Assembly (NCBI GenBank): GCA_963665235.2
Contig: CAXXLX010000002.1
Coordinates: forward strand, 480,001 to 544,000
Length of the DNA: 64,000 nt
Direction: 5' to 3'
Source of the DNA: Candidatus Poribacteria bacterium
GTDB lineage: Bacteria > Poribacteria > WGA-4E > WGA-3G
Positions within the stretch are counted from its first letter, which is position 1. Each line of letters opens with the position of its first letter. Under the pieces are notes generated by a model. The model was not told the DNA's origin, ran no database searches, and was given only the letters and a program-made list of their open reading frames with translations. The translations under genes were made by a program, and so were the position numbers. Shown in pieces: positions 4,861-60,133 of this stretch.

Positions 4861-5131
4861 CAGGCCTTACGCAAATTTAGGCGATAGTCTCGTAGGGGCG
4901 AGGTTTCCTCGCCCGTTAGTTTTGTTCTAAATCGGATTGAGGCCTTACGCAAATTTAGGCGGTAGTCTCGTAGGGGCGAGGTTTCCTCGCCCGTTAGTTT
5001 TGTTCTAAATCGGATTGAGGCTTTACGCGAATTTAGTCGATAGCCTCGTAGGGGCGAGTTTTCCTCGCCCGTTAGCTTTGCTTCTAAATCCCATTATCAC
5101 ATCGACTTATCAACGGGCTGCGTCTGTCCTG
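4861..5131. mobile_element. MITE-like element, family C, with three tandem 78-bp units each holding a GTAG-REP hairpin
   Basis: Ends CAGGCCTTACGCA / TGCGTCTGTCCTG; exact 5-bp TSD AAAGA (4856-4860, 5132-5136); units start 4862, 4940, 5018; REP GTAGGGGCGAGGTTTCCTCGCCC. Confidence 0.8.
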
Positions 5132-6174: not shown

Positions 6175-6691
6175 GGGTGTGTAAAGTTTTTGTACAAACA
6201 GTCCGATGTCTTATGTAGGAGTGTGCTTCGCACGCGACTGGCACCCCTCGACCTGTCTGGAATCCCGACATTCATCTTATGTAGAAACCTGCTTCGCACG
6301 CGACCTCCTAACGTAACTTGAGGGGAACAGTCGGCTCTTAGCCCCAGCGGGGCGGTATCTTTATAGAAAACCCAAACAAAACACAAAATAGCCCCAGCGG
6401 GGCGATATGTTTATAGATTTTAGCCAAACCCCGCTTCTTTCTGCCTCCGCCGCGTCCTCTGCACCTTCCTTGATTCAGCAAAAAATGCACAGATGTTAGC
6501 AAAAAACCTCTTTTCCGCGTTCTCTGTGTCCTCTGTGTAATCCGCGATTTGCGGCGTACTCGCCCAAATGCGACGTGCATTCTGACAACACACACGCTAA
6601 ATTCACTCTGCCACTCTTCCATCCTTCCACCCTTCCATGCTTCCACTCCTCCATCCTTCCCTCTATCATAGTACAAAAACTTTACGCACCC
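6175..6691. mobile_element. MITE-like composite, family A
   Basis: GGGTGTGTAAAGTTTTTGTAC at 6175 and GTACAAAAACTTTACGCACCC ending 6691 (20/21 IR); no TSD retained; cargo of REPs and TA-GCCCC hairpins. Confidence 0.7.
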
Positions 6692-20154: not shown

Positions 20155-20188
20155 GCTTGCACATTGAGACGTAAGCCGATCTTCTTCT

Positions 20189-20268
20189 GTAGGCGCGAGC
20201 TGGGCTCGCGATAGTAAGGCGCGGTCTGGGCTCGCGATATTTCTGTAGGCGCGAGCTGGGCTCGCGAT
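20189..20268 (+). repeat. Three tandem GTAG-REP hairpins
   Basis: GTAGGCGCGAGCTGGGCTCGCGAT x2 plus one degenerate middle copy. Confidence 0.8.
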
Positions 20269-20462
20269 ATTTCTGACACTTTATGGGTTATTCCCCTCCC
20301 CTCTGTTCCGCTACTCCGCGCGGTTTTTCCAACAAACGTCTTGCAAAATACGAAGATATCTGTTAAAATTGTAGACAGTTTATAGAGAAACGGCCTCGGG
20401 GGTACGTCCCCCTACGTCAAGAAATCTGCGCGCCTACCGGCACGAAATGGAGCGTTAATTTT

Positions 20463-33027: not shown

Positions 33028-33195
33028 CAGGGTGATTTGGTTCTCCATATTTTCAAGTGCTCTCTTCTGTAGGAGCGAGCTTTGCTCGCGACCGAGTGCC
33101 ATCAGTGCTTTCCGCGTCATCTCTTTCGGTCTTCTGTAGGAGCGAGCTTTGCTCGCGACCGCCACTGCAAAAATGCTGAAAACTAAATAGCCCTG
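33028..33195. mobile_element. 168-bp MITE, family B, with two REP hairpins
   Basis: CAGGGTGATTTGGTT / AACTAAATAGCCCTG ends; exact 10-bp TSD GCTTTACTCC (33018-33027, 33196-33205). Confidence 0.85.
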
Positions 33196-39371: not shown

Positions 39372-39590
39372 CAGGGCCATTTAGTTTTACAACTTCACTT
39401 TATATATGTGTATATGTTCCCCTAGTATTCGGGAAACCAACAGCACGCGCCTTAATATCGCGTGCACAGCACGCTCCTACAGAAGAGAACGCTTGAACCT
39501 ACGGGGTTTCAATATCACGTGCACAGCACGCTCCTACAGAAGAGGTTTGTTGAACACCCGGCGAAAAATATGGAGAACTAAATAACCCTG
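39372..39590. mobile_element. 219-bp MITE, family B, opposite orientation to the 33028 copy
   Basis: CAGGGCCATTTAGTT / AACTAAATAACCCTG ends; exact 10-bp TSD TGACTTTGGA (39362-39371, 39591-39600); two REPs inside. Confidence 0.85.
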
Positions 39591-39603: not shown

Positions 39604-40134
39604 GGGGGCGTAAAGTTTTCGTACACCCGTTCAGTATTCGGGCAAACGGTTTCCCGCTCCTATAGTAGGGCTATTCAGCACCCGTCGGGTTGCATAGGGT
39701 TATGATGTGCAATGGGGTTTGCTACTACAAACCGTTTTGTGACGGGCAATAAATGGTTTCCCTACTACGAGCACCGCTCTGATGAGCAAGGAGTCACACT
39801 GTAGGCGCAGACCGTTTTAAACATCAATAGATTAACTTGATATAGAAACTTTACATACCCGACATTATGTAGGAGCGTGCTTCGCACGCGATACCTTTTT
39901 AGATAGGCAGACACTCTTAAACTCCGCGTCTTCCGCGTTCTCCGCGACAATCCGCGATTTGCGGCGGACTCGTCCAAATGCGACGTGCATTCAGACAAAA
40001 AAACGCTAAAACTATAATCACAAAACTTGGATTGTTACCCATCGGACAATCCGCGAAATCCGTGTAATACGCGAAATCCACCCTTCCCCTCTTCCATCCT
40101 TCCATTTATCATAGTACAAAAACTTTACACACTC
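39604..40134. mobile_element. Family A composite element(s)
   Basis: Left end GGGGGCGTAAAGTTTTCGTAC; right-type ends at ~39860 and 40134; same cargo modules as the 6175 and 58229 copies. Confidence 0.6.
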
Positions 40135-44452: not shown

Positions 44453-44690
44453 TAAATGCTTCTACGAATAGCCCAGCCAAAAACGATGAATTACCCCTAT
44501 CGCATCCTTTACCCCCCTAACCCGCGATAGTCAAATCAACGTCCGACCTAGACAGCGAGCTGTTTTTCCACCCTTCCAATCTTCCAATCTTCCATCCCTC
44601 CCCCTAACTCTTCGCGATGTATTTATTGCTTTGCAGATAAATTCATGCTATAATTCATCACAGAAATCGATATTACAGAAAGAGAGACTT

Positions 44691-48843: not shown

Positions 48844-49995
48844 TTATCCCTGGGGGACAACCCGTCTTATGTCGTCTCCACTTAGGGCAGCTAAGCCTGC
48901 CCGTTTGATGTTGATTGCAGCGTTGACATCTCTATCGTGGTCTGAACCACATTCAGGACATGTCCACTGCCGATCTGAAAGAGTTAGTTTTTTGTTATGG
49001 TATCCACAATCACTACAAGGTTTCGTAGTTGCTGTCCATTGACCGATTTTCTGAAACGTCTTCCCGTGCTTAGCACACTTCTGTTCCAGTATCAGCAATA
49101 ACTGGTAGAAGGCATTATCAGAGACTTTGCGTCCCCAAAGGCGTTTCATACCGTCAATGTTTAGCGTTTCAAAAATGAGTATGTCAAACTCTGTGCAAAG
49201 TTCAGTAGCAAGTTTCCATTGCCAATCGAGGCGTTGGCGTGATATTTTCCGATAGAGCCTTGCTAATGTGAGCCTCACACGATACCAATTACTTGAACCT
49301 TTGACTTTGCGACTCAATGCCTTGTGCAGAGACCGCAACGTGTTGAGTGATTGTTTTAGAAAATGTGGTGATTCTATCTTCTGTCCCTCGTTGCTTGTGA
49401 GTAATGTTTTGTTTCCGTAATCAAACCCTGCGCTCTTACCCGTCATGGGTTTCGGTTCGGAACCGTCAACATTATCGCACGAAAAGCATATCCAATAGTC
49501 CCCGCATCTGTCGCGTTTGAGGGTGATCGTCTTGATAACACCTTGAATCTCACGATGGTTGTGAAACGAAAAATAGGTGTCTATACAGTTGATTTTGATA
49601 CGATGCTCTTCAAGCGTGTAACCCGCTTGTGTGAAAGTCATTGAGTTGTATTTGTGGCGAGACTTGATTTTCGGTCTACCCACCCGATGCCTCGTTTTGC
49701 CTGCTTTGCGGTCTTTGATATTATCAAGAAAAGCGTCTTGGGATTTGCCATAACGCAACACAACATCTTGAATCACTTGACTCGGTAAATCCGACCAATG
49801 GGGTTTGGTCCTTTTCTTCAGTTTCGTGATATGTTTATTTAGACGCGACGTGGATATATTCTTTCCGTAGAGGCGATAATAACGACGGGCTAAACAGACA
49901 ATATGCACGTGGATATGCCACATATCGTCAATCAAATTGCCAATCTTTATCGTGTTAGATTGGTCCTGAAATTTGAACTTGTAAGATTTTCTCAT
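48844..49995 (-). CDS. tnpB: RNA-guided endonuclease TnpB
   Basis: RuvC-I GFDYG, RuvC-II IFETL, CSDCG/CPECG zinc finger, RuvC-III HDRDVNAAINI. Confidence 0.95.
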   Translation of the reverse strand: MRKSYKFKFQDQSNTIKIGNLIDDMWHIHVHIVCLARRYYRLYGKNISTSRLNKHITKLKKRTKPHWSDLPSQVIQDVVLRYGKSQDAFLDNIKDRKAGKTRHRVGRPKIKSRHKYNSMTFTQAGYTLEEHRIKINCIDTYFSFHNHREIQGVIKTITLKRDRCGDYWICFSCDNVDGSEPKPMTGKSAGFDYGNKTLLTSNEGQKIESPHFLKQSLNTLRSLHKALSRKVKGSSNWYRVRLTLARLYRKISRQRLDWQWKLATELCTEFDILIFETLNIDGMKRLWGRKVSDNAFYQLLLILEQKCAKHGKTFQKIGQWTATTKPCSDCGYHNKKLTLSDRQWTCPECGSDHDRDVNAAINIKRAGLAALSGDDIRRVVPQG

Positions 49996-53765: not shown

Positions 53766-54842
53766 TTACTTGGAATCGGTATCCAATACTTGTAGGAATG
53801 CGTCAAAGCTGTGTATCTTCATAGCAGTGATTAGGAGTTGTGTCAGGCGTTCGGTATTGTGAATAGTTTCGAGTTGCTGCTTTGCGGTTTCGGTATCACT
53901 ATTAGGAAATCGTTCTGTGAGTATTGCTACGATATTCTTGATAGTGCCTTGTTCGATACCTTGTTCGATACCTTGTTCGATACCGCGTTCCATCAGGTTT
54001 TGTGCTATTGTTTGAGCCATAGGGTCTACCTCCAAGTTGTGTGTGTGCCTATCAACAAGTCCTATTAACTCTTCACGTTCCGCCGGTGAACGACGATGCA
54101 TGATAAGCGATAGAATATAGAAAATCGCTTCTCGTTTTTGGGCTTCCTGTCCCTCAGGAAGCTTGTCAGCGTGCTTTAGCATATCGACTAACGCACGACT
54201 TAGCTCTGCTGTGCTTGCGCGCTCTTTTTGCAGCACCGTAAGTAGCCAGCCTATCAGATGCTCTGTCTTCGTCAGAGTTTCCACCTCTGTCTCTTTGACA
54301 CTCAGAAACAGCGTCTCAAACTGTGGAATGAACCGTTCCAGCTCCTTCGGGAGATCCATGAGTGCTTGTAGTGTCAGCGGGACGGTCCATCGCCGGTCGC
54401 CTGTGTAAAAGACTATCGGCAGAATCGGTGACAAGCGACGTTCACTTTTGGGAACCTTGTCTGTCTTCCATCGTCTGATTTCTGCGTCCCATACTAACAT
54501 CATGTAGAGTAGAACGCGAAAGCCCATCGTCTCATCCACCGTAGATTGATGTTCAAGTAGAATATGGACTATCACATCATCTGCTTTATCCGCTGTTTCA
54601 AAAGGCACGCGATACAAAATGTCCGCTTCCCGTTCCCGTAAGTCTTCAGGAATAAAACTACTGCTAAGCGGCTCAAGCCGACTAAAATCCATAAATTTCG
54701 CAAGATCGCCGGCGATGATTTTTAACAAGCCCACTATGTTTTCCTTGTTTAGAAATAAGCGGCGGATACTCCTATCAGAAAAGTGTTCAATATGTTCATC
54801 TGGTAAATCGTGAGTGTTCGTCTCTTTCGTTTCCTCTGTCAT
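53766..54842 (-). CDS. Rpn-family (transposase_31, PD-(D/E)XK) nuclease
   Basis: READILY, LLEHQS, PIVFYTG, GIEQ x3 repeat. Confidence 0.9.
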   Translation of the reverse strand: MTEETKETNTHDLPDEHIEHFSDRSIRRLFLNKENIVGLLKIIAGDLAKFMDFSRLEPLSSSFIPEDLREREADILYRVPFETADKADDVIVHILLEHQSTVDETMGFRVLLYMMLVWDAEIRRWKTDKVPKSERRLSPILPIVFYTGDRRWTVPLTLQALMDLPKELERFIPQFETLFLSVKETEVETLTKTEHLIGWLLTVLQKERASTAELSRALVDMLKHADKLPEGQEAQKREAIFYILSLIMHRRSPAEREELIGLVDRHTHNLEVDPMAQTIAQNLMERGIEQGIEQGIEQGTIKNIVAILTERFPNSDTETAKQQLETIHNTERLTQLLITAMKIHSFDAFLQVLDTDSK

Positions 54843-55005
54843 TTTACACCTCAGTTCCTACCGCTAACAACATCATTCTTTAATACCCTCAATTGAAATT
54901 AAACAATATTGTCACGGTAAAATAGACACGTTAAGTATAACACTGTTTGACAAAACATAGCAAACTTTTTTTGTGTTGTCCAATTTGCACCTAAATGAAA
55001 TTGTT

Positions 55006-55034
55006 TTGACAAATTAAGCTGGGTATGTTATACT
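55006..55034 (+). promoter_or_regulatory. Sigma70-type promoter for the mrr pair
   Basis: TTGACA-17-TATACT with extended TG. Confidence 0.65.
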
Positions 55035-55069
55035 GCCAACATATTTCTAAATGTAAGAGAGATTTTTTT

Positions 55070-55921
55070 ATGGAAACTGTATGGAGAACGGCAATTCATC
55101 CAGAGACAAAGCTTGAATATAAGATTGAAATGCAAGCACTTAAGGAAATTAGACAAGCCATTCTTAAACTCGATTTTCCGCCTGCCGGAATGACGATTAA
55201 GAATGCGGTAGAGATATTGGCGGAAAATTTTGAACTGTCTGAAGAACAGAAGAACGCGGTTTACAAGTCTGGAACTAACATTTTTTACTCTATGGTCGCT
55301 CACACATTTGGGGTTCTTCTTAAGAAAGATAAGTTAAAACAGCCAAAAGGCAAAAAAACACCGTTTTTTCCTGCTGATGCACCTGTTGATGAACCTCCTG
55401 GATTTTTTCCGGGAGATACCCTAATCCCAGAATCTATTGAGGAATATTACCAAAAACTTAGAGCCAAATTGGCTAATGAACTTCTACAGCAGATTAAGGA
55501 GACCCAGGCCGCTTTTTTTGAAAAACTCGTTCTCGACCTGCTCGTAAAAACCGGATACGGTGGTTCGCGTGCAAATGCCGAAACGGTCGGACGAAGTGGC
55601 GATGCTGGAATTGACGGTATCATTTCTGGAGGCAGGCCATGGCTTGATACCATTTATGTTCAAGTCAAACGTTGGGAAAAAAATGTAAGCCGTCCTGAAA
55701 TTCAGAAGTTTGCCGGGGCATTGCAAGGTCAGAGTGCACAGAAGGGAATCTTCGTCACAACATCGAATTTTAGTAAGAACGCCAGAGAGTACGTGAAAAA
55801 AATCGATCAAAACGTCATATTAATTGATGGTGCGGAACTCGCGCAGCTAATGATTGACCACGGCTTTGGCGTTTACACTGCGAAAAACGAGGAAATCAAA
55901 TCTGAAATTATTGTAGCATGA
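55070..55921 (+). CDS. mrr: Mrr-family restriction endonuclease (divergent N-terminus)
   Basis: FFEKLVLDLL..GYG, GDAGIDG, YVQVKRW, GIFVTTS.F, LIDG. Confidence 0.88.
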   Translation: METVWRTAIHPETKLEYKIEMQALKEIRQAILKLDFPPAGMTIKNAVEILAENFELSEEQKNAVYKSGTNIFYSMVAHTFGVLLKKDKLKQPKGKKTPFFPADAPVDEPPGFFPGDTLIPESIEEYYQKLRAKLANELLQQIKETQAAFFEKLVLDLLVKTGYGGSRANAETVGRSGDAGIDGIISGGRPWLDTIYVQVKRWEKNVSRPEIQKFAGALQGQSAQKGIFVTTSNFSKNAREYVKKIDQNVILIDGAELAQLMIDHGFGVYTAKNEEIKSEIIVA

Positions 55922-55962
55922 AAAGCAGCAAAAGAAATTTTAATTGATATTCGGAGATAAAA

Positions 55963-56772
55963 ATGCCTATACCCACTACTGACGAAATGGTGCTACCCGT
56001 TCTTCAGCACATAGCTGATGGTCAAGAATACCGTCGCCTGAGTATTATAAAAATGCTTACCGAACATTTTTCGCTTACCGAGGATGAAAGGAGAAAACTA
56101 AGTAAAAGCGGAAAGATGGAACGGTCTTTGAGTCGTGAGGGACTCATAGAGCGAGCCAGAGAACGGCATTACCGAATAACAGCTCTCGGGCGTAATTTCT
56201 TAAGTCAAAGCCCGGAAGAAATTCCTGCGGAAGGTGGAGAAGGTGGCCAACGCCCTGAAAAATCCATTGACGAAAATTACCAGCAAATCAGAAAGGAATT
56301 AGCAGAGGACCTTTTAGAGAAGATTAAGGGTAACTCCCCTGATTTTTTCGAGAAATTGGTTGTTGACCTCCTCGTCAAGATGGGATATGGTGGCTCCCGA
56401 GAGGATGCTGGAAAGGCTGTAGGTGGCAGTGGTGATGGTGGGATTGACGGTATTATTAATGAAGATCGGCTTGGCCTTGATGTAGTTTATGTTCAGGCCA
56501 AACGGTGGGAAGGCAGTGTAAGTCGTCCCGAGATTCAGAGATTTGCGGGTGCCTTGCAAGGTCAACGTGCACGTAAAGGGGTCTTCATCACAACATCGAA
56601 TTTCACCAGAGATGCTGAAGAATATGTTGATACGATTGATTCTAAGATTGTTCTTATTGATGGAAAGCAACTGACAGAGTATATGATCGACCATGATATT
56701 GGTGTTTCCACGACAAAGACCTACGAAATCAAGCGCGTAGATTCCGATTACTTTGCTGAAGGTGCCGAATAG
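55963..56772 (+). CDS. mrr: Mrr-family restriction endonuclease
   Basis: MPIPT, GDGGIDG, EDRLGLD, YVQAKRW, KRVDSDYF. Confidence 0.93.
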   Translation: MPIPTTDEMVLPVLQHIADGQEYRRLSIIKMLTEHFSLTEDERRKLSKSGKMERSLSREGLIERARERHYRITALGRNFLSQSPEEIPAEGGEGGQRPEKSIDENYQQIRKELAEDLLEKIKGNSPDFFEKLVVDLLVKMGYGGSREDAGKAVGGSGDGGIDGIINEDRLGLDVVYVQAKRWEGSVSRPEIQRFAGALQGQRARKGVFITTSNFTRDAEEYVDTIDSKIVLIDGKQLTEYMIDHDIGVSTTKTYEIKRVDSDYFAEGAE

Positions 56773-56841: not shown

Positions 56842-58023
56842 TCAAATAACTTCCATCCACACCCCCGGCACGAACCTCGGATATTTTCCCTCACTGAACG
56901 CGGGATAATAGACCTCCTCTCCTGGGAAATCGTGAACTGTTTCGCCACCATCGGGATTTGGAATGTGCACCCTACAAATATACTCACTTTCGCGGAAATG
57001 CTGCTGCGGTGTCGGGGCAGATTTTTCAACGCGATATTCCGATAGGGCTGCTTCATCCACTGAAACACCGAGACCCGGTGACGTTGGCACCTGAATTGTG
57101 CCATCCACCACATCGAGACGCGTTTCCAACAGATCCGATTCCCATAACTCATGGCAGGTAATTGCAGGCAACTCGGCTTGCGATAGCACTGCACCGAGAT
57201 GCACACAGTATGCGGTTGTAATGCCGGTACCGACCATCTGGAGCCAGAAGGGTTGGCCAAACGATGAACAGAGCGCGTTGGTTCGCCGCAGCGAGTTGAC
57301 ACCCCCGCCAACAACAAACCCACCACAACAACGTTCATGTAAACAGGATTCGTTGAAATGCTCCACAATACGTTTCTCTATAGCATCCTGCAACCGCTTC
57401 GCGCCTTCTGTATCTGTTCCGAGGTAGAACGGACTCTCGTAGATGGCCACATTCGGATGCTCGTCTAATTTCTGTAAAACGGGGATAGCGTCGTCTGCTG
57501 TTAGCAGGAAGCCGTTGAAGTCAATGTCGAGCCGATAGTCTGCTGGTACAGCGTCCCCGACCGCGTCAACCTGTGCGAAGATATCTCGCCAAGGCCGCGC
57601 CTTCAGTTTGGCGGAAGTATACCCCCGTTTAACGGATTCTTCTACCTCTGCCACCCAATCTTCAGGGGGCATGTCAATGTCCCACCATGAAATGGGGCAC
57701 CGTTCGCGAACCTTCGGGCCCATCAGGTCGGACGCAGGGACACCGACCGTTTTGCCAACGGCATCAAAAAGCGACATCTGGATACCGAACCCGACCCCAT
57801 CATCGTTCATACATGCGAACGGGTTTTGCCCAACGAGCCGTTCAATATTGCCTGATTCGTCATATAAATTTTCGCCATATCCTACAATTCCGTTGCTCAG
57901 TTCCACGCGGTAAACGTAGACTCGTTCGCCGTGCGTCGCTGCACGGTGCATGTGTCGACTGACGCGGTCACAATAAAACGGAACGTTCAACGGAATTACT
58001 TCGAGGTGTTTTATGCTAAGCAT
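56842..58023 (-). CDS. Mandelate racemase/muconate lactonizing enzyme family
   Basis: GYGE, LFDAVGK..GVP, KLK, D.N, ESP, VPTSPGLGV. Confidence 0.88.
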   Translation of the reverse strand: MLSIKHLEVIPLNVPFYCDRVSRHMHRAATHGERVYVYRVELSNGIVGYGENLYDESGNIERLVGQNPFACMNDDGVGFGIQMSLFDAVGKTVGVPASDLMGPKVRERCPISWWDIDMPPEDWVAEVEESVKRGYTSAKLKARPWRDIFAQVDAVGDAVPADYRLDIDFNGFLLTADDAIPVLQKLDEHPNVAIYESPFYLGTDTEGAKRLQDAIEKRIVEHFNESCLHERCCGGFVVGGGVNSLRRTNALCSSFGQPFWLQMVGTGITTAYCVHLGAVLSQAELPAITCHELWESDLLETRLDVVDGTIQVPTSPGLGVSVDEAALSEYRVEKSAPTPQQHFRESEYICRVHIPNPDGGETVHDFPGEEVYYPAFSEGKYPRFVPGVWMEVI

Positions 58024-58228
58024 GATGTCTCCTCCAATTCTCGGATTATCCTGAGCTGAATTGTAGCACATTCCACAAATTATAGGTTAAAAAATTCTGA
58101 CAATCTTTCCTCCTCTGATGAAATTTGACAATCAAATCGGTAGTTGGATACGTAGGGGTTGGGTTCCCCAACCCGCTTGGCTTTTGAGCTTTCCCAGCTC
58201 GGGCGTGGAAACCACGCCCCTACGATAC

Positions 58229-59031
58229 GGGTGTGTAAAATTTTTGTACTTAAACGTGAGTTTGAAAATAAATGTCCGTTTTCTCTATAAATATATCGTC
58301 CCTACGGGACTATGGGTTGTGGCAACATCTGCTTCTATAAATATATCGTCCCTACGGGACTAGGCGTATCGGGGCGACATGTTTAATGTGAACGCCAGAC
58401 AATCTAGCCCCATCGGGGCGGTATATTTATAGAAAACACAACAACACAACACAATCTAGCCCCATCGGGGCGGTATATTTATAGAAAACACAACACAATC
58501 TAGCCCCATCGGGGCGGTATATTTATAGAAGCACAAGGGCCAGACAATCTAGCCCCATCGGGGCGGTATATTTATAGAAAGACAATCTAGCCCCATCGGG
58601 GCAACACAACACAATCTAGCCCCATCGGGGCGGTATATTTATAGAAAACACAACAACACAACACAATCTAGCCCCATCGGGGCGGTATATTTATAGAAGC
58701 ACAAGGGCCAGACAATCAGCCCCAGGGCGGTATATTTATAGAAGCCAGACAATCTAGCCCCATCGGGGCGGTATATTTATAGAAAACACAACACAATCTA
58801 GCCCCATCGGGGCGGTATATTTATAGAAAACACAACACACTAGCTCATAATCACAAACCTTCTATTGTTACGCATCTTAAAATCCGATAAATCCTATTGA
58901 CTTTGCCTTCATTTGATAAATCCGCAATTCAGACAACACACGCGCGAAATCCATCCTTCCCCCCTTCCAATCTTCCAATCTTCCAATCTTCCATCCTTCC
59001 CTCTATCATAGTACAAAAACTTTACACACCC
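58229..59031. mobile_element. Family A element with 9-bp TSD
   Basis: GGGTGTGTAAAATTTTTGTACT / AGTACAAAAACTTTACACACCC; TSD CTACGATAC at 58220-58228 and 59032-59040. Confidence 0.88.
58399..58828 (+). repeat. Array of ten 36-bp hairpin repeats with short recurring linkers
   Basis: ACAATCTAGCCCCATCGGGGCGGTATATTTATAGAA; eight exact, one partial, one degenerate. Confidence 0.9.
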
Positions 59032-59205
59032 CTACGATACCCAACTTGAACTTCAAAATTCATTAGGAGCGAGCTGTGCTCGCGATATTTTTTTCAATCT
59101 TTCCTCCTCTGTAGGAGCGAGCTGGGCTCGCGATAATTTTTTTTGAAGAAAATTGGGACGGTTTGCAACTAACATGACGATGGCACGCTATTTAGCGAGC
59201 TGGGT

Positions 59206-59235
59206 TTGACACCTAAAGCGTTTTGGTGGTATAAT
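59206..59235 (+). promoter_or_regulatory. Sigma70-type promoter
   Basis: TTGACA-18-TATAAT with extended TG. Confidence 0.65.
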
Positions 59236-59266
59236 TCTGTCAAGACATCGCTAACTTAAGGAGAAT

Positions 59267-60133
59267 ATGGTGACACAAATTAAGCCTTTTACTGTTTCAA
59301 ACGAGCTGTTAGCTGAACCGGTTAAGCTGCAAGAACAGGCACAGCAGGACGGGTATCTCTACTTCCGCGGTTTGATTGATGCCGAATCAATTTACAACCT
59401 GCGTCAAGATTTCTTGGAGATTTGCCATCGACACGGTTGGGCTGAAGGCGGCGACACACTGATGGACGGCATCCGAATAGGCGGCCCCTTCATGGAAGGG
59501 GATGATGGATATTGGCCGGTGTTGGACGAATTCCAATGTTTGGAATCGTTTCACGCCTTTGCACATCACCCCGCAATTTTGGAGGTGTGTGACACGTTGT
59601 TCGGTGAAAAGACGTTGGTGCATCCCCGAAATATTGGCAGAATTATGTTCCCTGAAAACACGAAATACACAACACCCGCACATCAGGATTATATTCACAT
59701 TCGCGGGACGGAGGAGACCTATACAGGCTGGATTCCGCTCGGCGCATGTCCCGAACATTTGGGGGGATTGACAGTGTTGGCAGGCTCACATCGGTTTGGC
59801 ATATTTCCGGTGAAACCGGCACATGGTGCCGGCGGACTCGGTATCGACACCGCGCCTCTAGAGGCAGATGGACTTACATGGGTTGCAGGCGATTACGACA
59901 TAGGCGATGCTATCTTCTTTCATAGTCATACCGTTCACAAAGCACTGCCGAACCAGAGCCCCAATAGGATACGGCTTTCAGTAGACTATCGTTATCAGGG
60001 CTGCTCAAAACCGGTCACGCAAGGCTCGCTGTTACCGCATTTCAATCGGATGCCCTGGGATGAAATCTATAGCGGATGGAAATCCACAGAATATCAATAC
60101 TACTGGAACGCGTTTGACCTAAATCGGGTGTAA
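59267..60133 (+). CDS. PhyH family dioxygenase
   Basis: PAHQD, WIPLG, LAGSH, HKALPN, RLSVDYR. Confidence 0.92.
   Translation: MVTQIKPFTVSNELLAEPVKLQEQAQQDGYLYFRGLIDAESIYNLRQDFLEICHRHGWAEGGDTLMDGIRIGGPFMEGDDGYWPVLDEFQCLESFHAFAHHPAILEVCDTLFGEKTLVHPRNIGRIMFPENTKYTTPAHQDYIHIRGTEETYTGWIPLGACPEHLGGLTVLAGSHRFGIFPVKPAHGAGGLGIDTAPLEADGLTWVAGDYDIGDAIFFHSHTVHKALPNQSPNRIRLSVDYRYQGCSKPVTQGSLLPHFNRMPWDEIYSGWKSTEYQYYWNAFDLNRV

Follow-up and report, generated by a model that had tools for sequence, protein, structure and literature searches.

The DNA analysed here, a 64,000-nt stretch of Candidatus Poribacteria contig CAXXLX010000002.1 (positions 480,001 to 544,000; hereafter the window), contains a 1195-bp spacer between two divergently oriented genes, an enolase-superfamily (racemase) gene on the minus strand and a PhyH-family gene on the plus strand, and this spacer holds a nested stack of repeats (Table 1). 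An 803-bp MITE (a miniature transposable element with inverted repeats) lies within a 134-bp element, here called F, which in turn lies within one of two tandem units that each carry a repetitive extragenic palindromic (REP) sequence. The stack is real and its parts are of known kinds, namely an ISKra4-family MITE, GTAG-type REPs and a doublet like the REP doublets known as REPINs; the part of some interest is only the scar-free landing of F inside another repeat.

Layers of the stack and their junctions

Three GTAG-type REP classes were recognized in the window, REP-A (GTAGGAGCGAGC..GCTCGCGA), REP-B (GTAGGGGCGAGGTTTCCTCGCCC) and REP-C (GTAGCACAAACT..AGTTTGTGC). The REP-A unit that hosts F and the REP-B hairpins have the defining arrangement of GTAG REPs, with GTAG directly 5' of a short GC-rich imperfect palindrome.

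Both the nesting and its junctions can be read directly from the DNA. The MITE has inverted ends (58229-58250 and 59010-59031) with 21 of 22 positions complementary, and its 9-bp target-site duplication is perfect, beginning on the CTAC (58220-58223) of the right-hand REP-B of F; an initial annotation of this DNA had described the 22-bp inverted ends, the 9-bp duplication and its start on the CTAC of a REP. Scripted excision of the MITE with one copy of the duplication leaves F (58118-58228 joined to 59041-59063), and the inverted REP pair between imperfect inverted repeats that had been proposed for this remnant was recovered, the outer arms matching at 17 of 23 positions by reading of the alignment. 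Further excision of 58118-59063 joins 58101-58117 to 59064-59094 and rebuilds a 48-bp unit matching 59095-59142 at 46 of 48 positions, in agreement with the earlier peel-back order and with the earlier claim of a landing in G|TAG without duplication. The left 17-mer occurs at two places only in the window, where 0.12 matches are expected at up to three mismatches. F lies inside the GTAG of this unit, after the G and before the TAG, with no base duplicated, and the junction cannot be shifted because F starts with A and ends with T. The host had also been described as a 36-bp hairpin array; it is instead a tandem pair of 48-bp units with one REP hairpin each, phased from CAATC (58101) and not from G|TAG.

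Table 1. Features of the stack and its flanking genes, followed by the paired MITE copies compared at their 9-nt flanks. Positions are those of the window; L numbers denote other Poribacteria loci.
Feature	Position	Strand	Remarks
Left flanking gene, enolase superfamily (mandelate racemase/muconate lactonizing enzyme C-terminal domain)	56842..58071	-	Pfam PF13378, E 2e-26
REP-A unit 1, 5' part, 17 nt	58101..58117	+	ends ...CTCTG; exact 17/17 repeat of 59095-59111
F, left 111 nt: arm 58118-58151, REP-B hairpin 58152-58179 (+), spacer, inverted REP-B 58196-58223 (-)	58118..58228	+	left end found again in L003:1-41
Target-site duplication copy 1, CTACGATAC	58220..58228		9/9 against 59032-59040; overlaps CTAC of inverted REP-B
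Non-autonomous ISKra4-family MITE, 803 bp	58229..59031		ends match L057 insertion sequence 21/21
Two REP-D hairpin repeats inside MITE, one orientation	58284..58363	+	TCTATAAAyATAyCG and 4-5-bp GC stem
REP-D array inside MITE, opposite orientation	58391..58836	-	8 intact and 2 damaged copies (58583-58602, 58725-58745; damage by reading)
Target-site duplication copy 2, CTACGATAC	59032..59040		9/9 against 58220-58228
F, right 23 nt (right arm)	59041..59063	+	ends ...TTCAT
REP-A unit 1, 3' part: TAGGAGCG hairpin and T run	59064..59094	+	without G before TAGG
REP-A unit 2, intact	59095..59142	+	shows empty site ...CTCTG|TAGG...; 46/48 against rejoined unit 1
Consensus sigma-70-like promoter of PhyH gene	59206..59235	+	12/12 with TG extension; downstream of whole stack
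Right flanking gene, PhyH-family dioxygenase	59267..60133	+	Pfam PF05721, E 1.7e-18
MITE copy, window	58229		flank match 9/9
MITE copy, L057			flank match 9/9
MITE copy, L068			flank match 8/9
MITE copy, L055			flank match 9/9 after 2-nt register shift
MITE copy, L086			flank match 6/9 (8/9 shifted)
MITE copy, window	6175		flank match <=3/9
MITE copy, window	39604		flank match <=3/9
MITE copy, L008			flank match <=3/9
MITE copy, L009			flank match <=3/9
MITE copy, L038			at contig end, not scorable

Related loci were drawn from a genome-collection scan with a 17-nt degenerate pattern of the MITE end, too short a pattern, which returned at least 93 stretches, for the most part fortuitous matches in unrelated phyla; among the matches listed, usable Poribacteria loci numbered about 19. 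Together with the window, these 19 loci make up the ~323 kb of sampled DNA, including ~18.6 kb of overlap between L057 and L058. Every locus bearing the full 21-nt MITE end among the matches listed belonged to a metagenome-assembled genome (MAG) of Candidatus Poribacteria, and three gene segments of the window showed 72-83% nucleotide identity to such loci, so that the genome of the window is probably absent from the fetched set. The racemase-PhyH gene pair was found in none of the fetched loci, in which only an FGE-sulfatase homologue (L008) and a distant PhyH paralogue (L003) matched. Within the ~323 kb, spanning several genomes, 39 TAGG-plus-hairpin sites were counted, and the base before TAGG was G in 37 of them, the exceptions being the F junction itself (59064) and a stem-extending variant at L003:5559.

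The innermost layer, an ISKra4-family MITE

The inner element is an ordinary ISKra4-family MITE, as is directly evident from the combination of ends shared with an autonomous ISKra4 partner, a duplication of the 8-9-bp class and the lack of any coding capacity for a transposase (open reading frames, ORFs, of at most 81 aa). Positions 59011-59031 are identical (21/21) to both ends of L057:9997-11465, a 1469-bp autonomous insertion sequence (IS) with a single 439-aa ORF (L057:10024-11343, minus strand), the product of which scored 233 bits against the NCBIfam ISKra4 model NF033572 (cut-off 205) and 27.8 bits against Pfam UPF0236 (cut-off 24.3). This IS supplies the transposase gene bounded by the ends of the inner element that the initial annotation had suggested looking for, and L031 has at its edge one end of a second autonomous copy, with the last 37 aa 84% identical. 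Pfam searches of two ORFs scanned in the MITE region (58118-58363 and 58897-59049) gave no family, and tblastn with the L057 transposase against the window detected no transposase remnant in the MITE.

The Mutator-like group is reported to have inverted repeats of 18-39 bp that carry a terminal C, and its direct repeats to measure 8 or 9 bp (Guerillot et al. 2014, PMC3942029). The window MITE agrees with the ISKra4 family, whose transposases are the prokaryotic Mutator-like 'p-MULT 4' type, in inverted-repeat length, terminal C and 9-bp duplication. Unlike the autonomous copy, it carries no coding sequence, and its interior is occupied by an array of short hairpin repeats not present in that copy. 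Some ISKra4 members prefer sites upstream of a sigma-A promoter, a preference not seen by eye at the window copy or at the intragenic L057 site. The L057 IS is flanked by a 9/9 duplication (GAGAAGATT) and splits a PLD/SNF2-type helicase gene into ORFs of 625 and 469 aa, which share the domains (PLDc_2, Helicase_C) and, summed, the length of a 1094-aa ORF in L043, a correspondence established by domains and length rather than by alignment. The split helicase gene adjoins an Eco57I-like methylase gene and a cNMP-binding TIR (Pycsar-like) gene, and this region (L057:8146-12911) looks like a defence island struck by an ISKra4 IS.

The comparison of 9-nt flanks covered ten paired MITE copies, nine of them scorable (Table 1). 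The duplications of other family members, GAGAAGATT, T/AGTCACTAT and CCCCAATAA, are unrelated to GTAG and share no common motif, and GTAG or CTAC is present in only 2 of 31 MITE-family end flanks (12 nt each), both of them from the 58229-59031 copy, so that the start of the window duplication on a REP CTAC is best read as chance. The earlier proposal of GTAG as a landing site shared by several non-autonomous families is not supported: it fails for the MITE and, for F, rests on two copies. Targeting of the MITE through the likeness of its end (CACACCC) to a REP stem (CACGCCC) was also ruled out, with no such likeness seen by eye outside the L057 and L068 duplications.

Several further members of the MITE family were observed in the window. 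The copy at 6175-6691 (517 bp) has good ends, no duplication and REP-A hairpins within it, which shows that nesting runs in both directions. A copy at 39604-40134 has a diverged left end and an extra internal end-like sequence (39846-39862) adjoining a REP-A, and a decayed right part without an end lies at ~900-1255. A CTTCCAyC simple repeat is found close to the right-hand ends of MITE copies and at one further place (1201-1254, 6611-6664, 40080-40100, 44573-44594 and 58950-59000), accompanied at 1143-1181 and 40048-40079 by AATCCGCGA repeats.

Element F and its insertion at G|TAG

Both hairpins of F carry GTAG at the 5' foot, are GC-rich and are inverted to each other. The DNA fold of the element reaches -31.7 kcal/mol, compared to -13.2 +/- 2.6 in 300 mononucleotide shuffles, none of which attained the observed value (z = -7.2). 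With two inverted REPs and a spacer that can fold into one hairpin, as in a REPIN, F looks REPIN-like. The REP-B stems of the two hairpins and of the commoner window form differ by compensatory pairs, changes of the kind expected when recognition of a hairpin depends on its structure. The pentamer GATAC stands directly at both sides of the REP-B dimer (58147-58151 and 58224-58228), and removal of the dimer with one GATAC leaves a small palindrome, GTTGG-ATAC-CCAAC; the pair could mark a fifth insertion layer or could equally be part of an imperfect palindrome. Host sequence at 58093-58105 resembles the left arm of F (58121-58133) at 11 of 13 positions, which could be chance or the remnant of an older F end.

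Within the window the left end of F occurs once at up to three mismatches. The initial annotation had named the absence of F ends elsewhere as evidence against its proposal, and a second left end was found in another Poribacteria genome at L003:1-41, with 92.7% identity over 41 columns (93.5% over 46 columns with its flank). Its left flank equals that of the window (CTCTG|ATGAA, 5 nt identical; chance ~1/1024), so that CTCTG precedes both left ends (2/2, two ends only), and the neighbouring gene differs from that of the window, which makes this an independent site. As CTCTG is the 5' flank of a REP-A unit in the window and most REP-A copies carry the similar TTCTG, the L003 copy may also lie within a REP-A, the right side being off the contig. 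Two copies are too few to call F a family. A protein-collection search for F copies with 44-aa and 81-aa stretches of the window returned none and is uninformative on copy number, small ORFs being rarely predicted.

The L003 contig stops inside the REP-B hairpin of its F copy, which indicates that assemblers do break at such repeats, and the region of the stack is made up of multi-copy repeats. Both points favour an account with no transposition series at all, in which the stack arose through REP-mediated recombination or gene conversion, or through mis-assembly across repeats. Insertion, however, predicts the 9/9 duplication, the rejoined unit with its 17/17 and 29/31 matches, and inverted ends that an autonomous IS elsewhere shares exactly, whereas chimeric joins predict none of these. 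Given three independent exact features, mis-assembly is unlikely and we regard this account as a whole as very improbable.

The stack is instead best explained by three steps, and we place the probability of this whole explanation at about 0.6. In the first, a 48-bp unit with a GTAG-type REP-A (...CTCTG-TAGGAGCGAGC-loop-GCTCGCGA and a T run) would have been duplicated in tandem. In the second, F would have entered unit 1 exactly between G and TAG without target duplication, most likely through the single-strand cut-and-join reaction of a trans-acting HUH tyrosine (Y1) enzyme. This would be a REP-associated tyrosine transposase (RAYT) or a TnpA of the IS200/IS605 type, and it would recognize hairpins and choose a short fixed sequence for insertion, here either within GTAG or 3' of CTCTG. 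In the third, the MITE, a Mutator-like DDE element, would have entered F by ordinary staggered-cut transposition, yielding the 9-bp duplication. The spacer would then be a record of successive insertions, in which the F and MITE steps may have taken place in either order.

The enzyme and mechanism of F, and CTCTG or G|TAG as its specific target, are what we infer here, and the HUH reading is favoured because an element made of GTAG-headed hairpins was inserted exactly and without duplication beside a short fixed sequence. The same CTCTG flank at the second F end gives a hint of insertion at a specific site without duplication, of the kind known for HUH/RAYT or IS200/IS605. The Escherichia coli RAYT is reported to need GTAG and a hairpin, to act on single strands with strand transfer, and to be able to cut inside CTAC (CC|TAC) (Ton-Hoang et al. 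2012, PMC3333891). That REPs serve as RAYT substrates and as IS targets, as the initial annotation had stated, is in print (PMC3333891, PMC1525189). Its suggestion of a duplication-free mechanism despite terminal inverted repeats stood in part: F has no duplication, but its inverted ends are the arms of a REP-doublet palindrome and not demonstrated DDE-type terminal repeats.

Among known systems, F most resembles elements that are themselves tied to REPs or hairpins. REPINs of Pseudomonas fluorescens SBW25, which are mobilized by a RAYT, are described in unorganized clusters in which, like F, one sits in another REP (PMC3116915). F differs from them in having arms of 23-34 nt outside the REPs, in its two copies, in that no RAYT was located and in its host, a member of the Poribacteria and not a proteobacterium. 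For Anabaena variabilis, GTAG-15 dimers are described in which a GTAG REP dimer is central in a longer palindrome, one for which no dimer-free copy was reported (Di Nocera et al. 2013, PMC3733652); the architecture is similar to that of F, with no sequence relationship established and only short AT-rich words shared by the arms (by eye). Members of IS200/IS605 and their non-autonomous derivatives share with F the lack of target duplication and subterminal hairpins (PMC3333891); they insert beside a short fixed sequence, as F may do, judging by the CTCTG at both of its two known left ends. They have no inverted ends and their two hairpins are direct on one active strand, whereas F is symmetric and departs from them in this defining feature. 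The non-autonomous derivatives of IS200/IS605 are known as palindrome-associated elements. The REP-targeting ISs ISPa11, ISPpu9/10, ISPsy8 and ISRm22 resemble F in breaking a REP at one exact position, the target being rebuildable from its fragments (PMC1525189), but they are autonomous members of the IS110, IS3 and IS4 families and F is a 134-bp non-coding palindrome.

A number of results weigh against the three-step explanation. The tblastn search with E. coli RayT gave no match in the window or the 19 Poribacteria loci, its only match being in L052, an Acidobacteriota MAG, and Pfam scans of 283 ORFs (54 and 80 at E<=1e-5, 149 at E<=1e-8) detected no Y1_Tnp or IS110-type family. The Y1/RAYT negative is weak because the sample covers a few percent (about 5%) of any one genome. 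The implied cut at G|TAG (CTA|C on the other strand) differs from the C|T site (CC|TAC) reported for E. coli (PMC3333891), and the hairpins of F are inverted, unlike the direct left-end and right-end hairpins of IS200/IS605. Only two F copies (three ends) were found in the ~323 kb, too few for a population-level case, and 4 of the 9 scorable paired MITE copies have no duplication (<=3/9 matches). As mobile-element proteins, the Pfam ORF scans recovered an isolated TnpB (48844-49995) and a protein of YhgA-like type (53766-54842); the ISKra4 transposase of L057 was scanned separately. The tnpB gene (IS605 OrfB / Cas12f-like TNB, minus strand) has no adjacent tnpA and ends ~40 bp from the start of an SMC-like gene, and no GTAG hairpin or F-like sequence was seen by eye at the ends of this element.

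IS110/IS1111 is the IS family best known for fixed-position REP insertion with little or no duplication, and mobilization of F in trans by a DEDD recombinase of this type is a rival account. Its members are reported to interrupt REPs at constant positions, a 2-bp repeat being present or absent, as in ISPa11 (IS110 family), which lies between REP bases 6 and 7 with no direct repeats, and in ISPpu9 and ISPpu10, at a fixed REP position (PMC1525189); F too lies at a fixed REP point without duplication. We nonetheless consider this route improbable for F, a non-coding element without the DEDD transposase gene that characterizes the family. Its 134 bp can hardly accommodate the long non-coding guide region found in IS110-type elements, no core dinucleotide is shared (the target CTCTG|TAGG is without AT, and F starts and ends with AT), and the 283 ORFs scanned contain no IS110-type family. 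TA-duplicating (IS630-like), serine-recombinase and IS110 core-dinucleotide readings of the F junction were ruled out, as CTCTG|TAGG lacks AT and the junction has no base common to both sides.

The imperfect inverted ends of F (17/23) are also what an ordinary DDE-type MITE with an absent or lost duplication would have, and the 17-mer CAATCTTTCCTCCTCTG, an exact direct repeat at both sides of F plus the adjacent 31-nt REP-A half, could be the 17-bp duplication of a composite mobile unit. We give these two variants little credence. A duplication of 17 bp is far outside the usual sizes, the F junction leaves no room for a duplication of 1-3 bp, and the L003 copy shares CTCTG only and not the 17-mer. 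Moreover, 29 of the 31 nt that adjoin F on the right agree with what follows the second 17-mer, including a T run absent from other REP-A copies, so that a 48-bp tandem unit is the simpler reading.

With HUH-driven insertion of F thus preferred, it is tempting to go further and to regard F as a working REPIN, with a RAYT-type enzyme aiming its integration at a single phosphodiester, which lies at G|TAG in a REP class other than its own and can also be described as the bond 3' of CTCTG; this extension is tentative and we think it doubtful. If correct, the locus would be a clean record, left in nature, of a REPIN integrating, with the unoccupied site kept 48 bp away, and REP classes would seed one another by 'REP-in-REP homing'. 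The spread of REPs and REPINs is still described as unresolved and their dissemination as poorly understood (PMC3116915; Corneloup et al. 2021, PMC8266576). F in a REP with exact junctions, no duplication and an unfilled twin adjacent provides concrete substrates for a cleavage and strand-transfer assay as well as a pattern for genome-wide searches. To our knowledge no REP/RAYT system has been described in Poribacteria, and our literature search surfaced none among the papers it listed. The identification of an ISKra4-family IS and its MITEs in Poribacteria is a more routine gain.

Hairpin repeats and genes around the stack

Beyond the GTAG REPs, a fourth hairpin family, REP-D, consists of TCTATAAAyATAyCG, a 4-5-bp GC stem with a 3-nt loop, and then CTAr. 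Its array inside the MITE has periods of 44-52 bp and a super-period of 168 bp, and REP-D was also found elsewhere in the window (6338-6417, 43372 and 51790) and in L043, L055, L064, L068 and L086. Its stems vary by compensatory pairs within and between genomes (TCCC/GGGA, CCCC/GGGG, CTCC/GGAG, CCCA/TGGG), and all copies score as weak terminator-like sites. The intergenic spacers of these genomes accumulate at least four families of hairpin repeats, which is relevant to assembly and gene calling in uncultured organisms. An Rfam search of the whole window gave no family at the gathering score, and 57900-59400 returned chance-level matches only.

Tandem and inverted arrangements of the REP hairpins recur across the sampled DNA. 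At 4862-5090, a 78-bp unit with a single REP-B hairpin occurs three times in tandem (94% matches). REP-A forms short same-orientation tandem arrays at 20185-20275, 33069-33160, 39456-39537 and L039:10098-10250, the last with up to five copies at a 38-bp period, and tight 40-nt inverted REP-A doublets occur in L008, L009 and L065, contigs of one MAG (JAAXHO01).

The promoter of the PhyH gene comprises TTGACA, an 18-nt interval, TG and TATAAT, and lies 31 nt upstream of the start of the gene. Because the entire stack is upstream of this promoter, the PhyH gene need not be disturbed by it. Just left of the racemase gene, the gene for the YhgA-like (Transposase_31) protein is followed by two adjacent Mrr-type restriction endonuclease genes (53766-56772 for the three).

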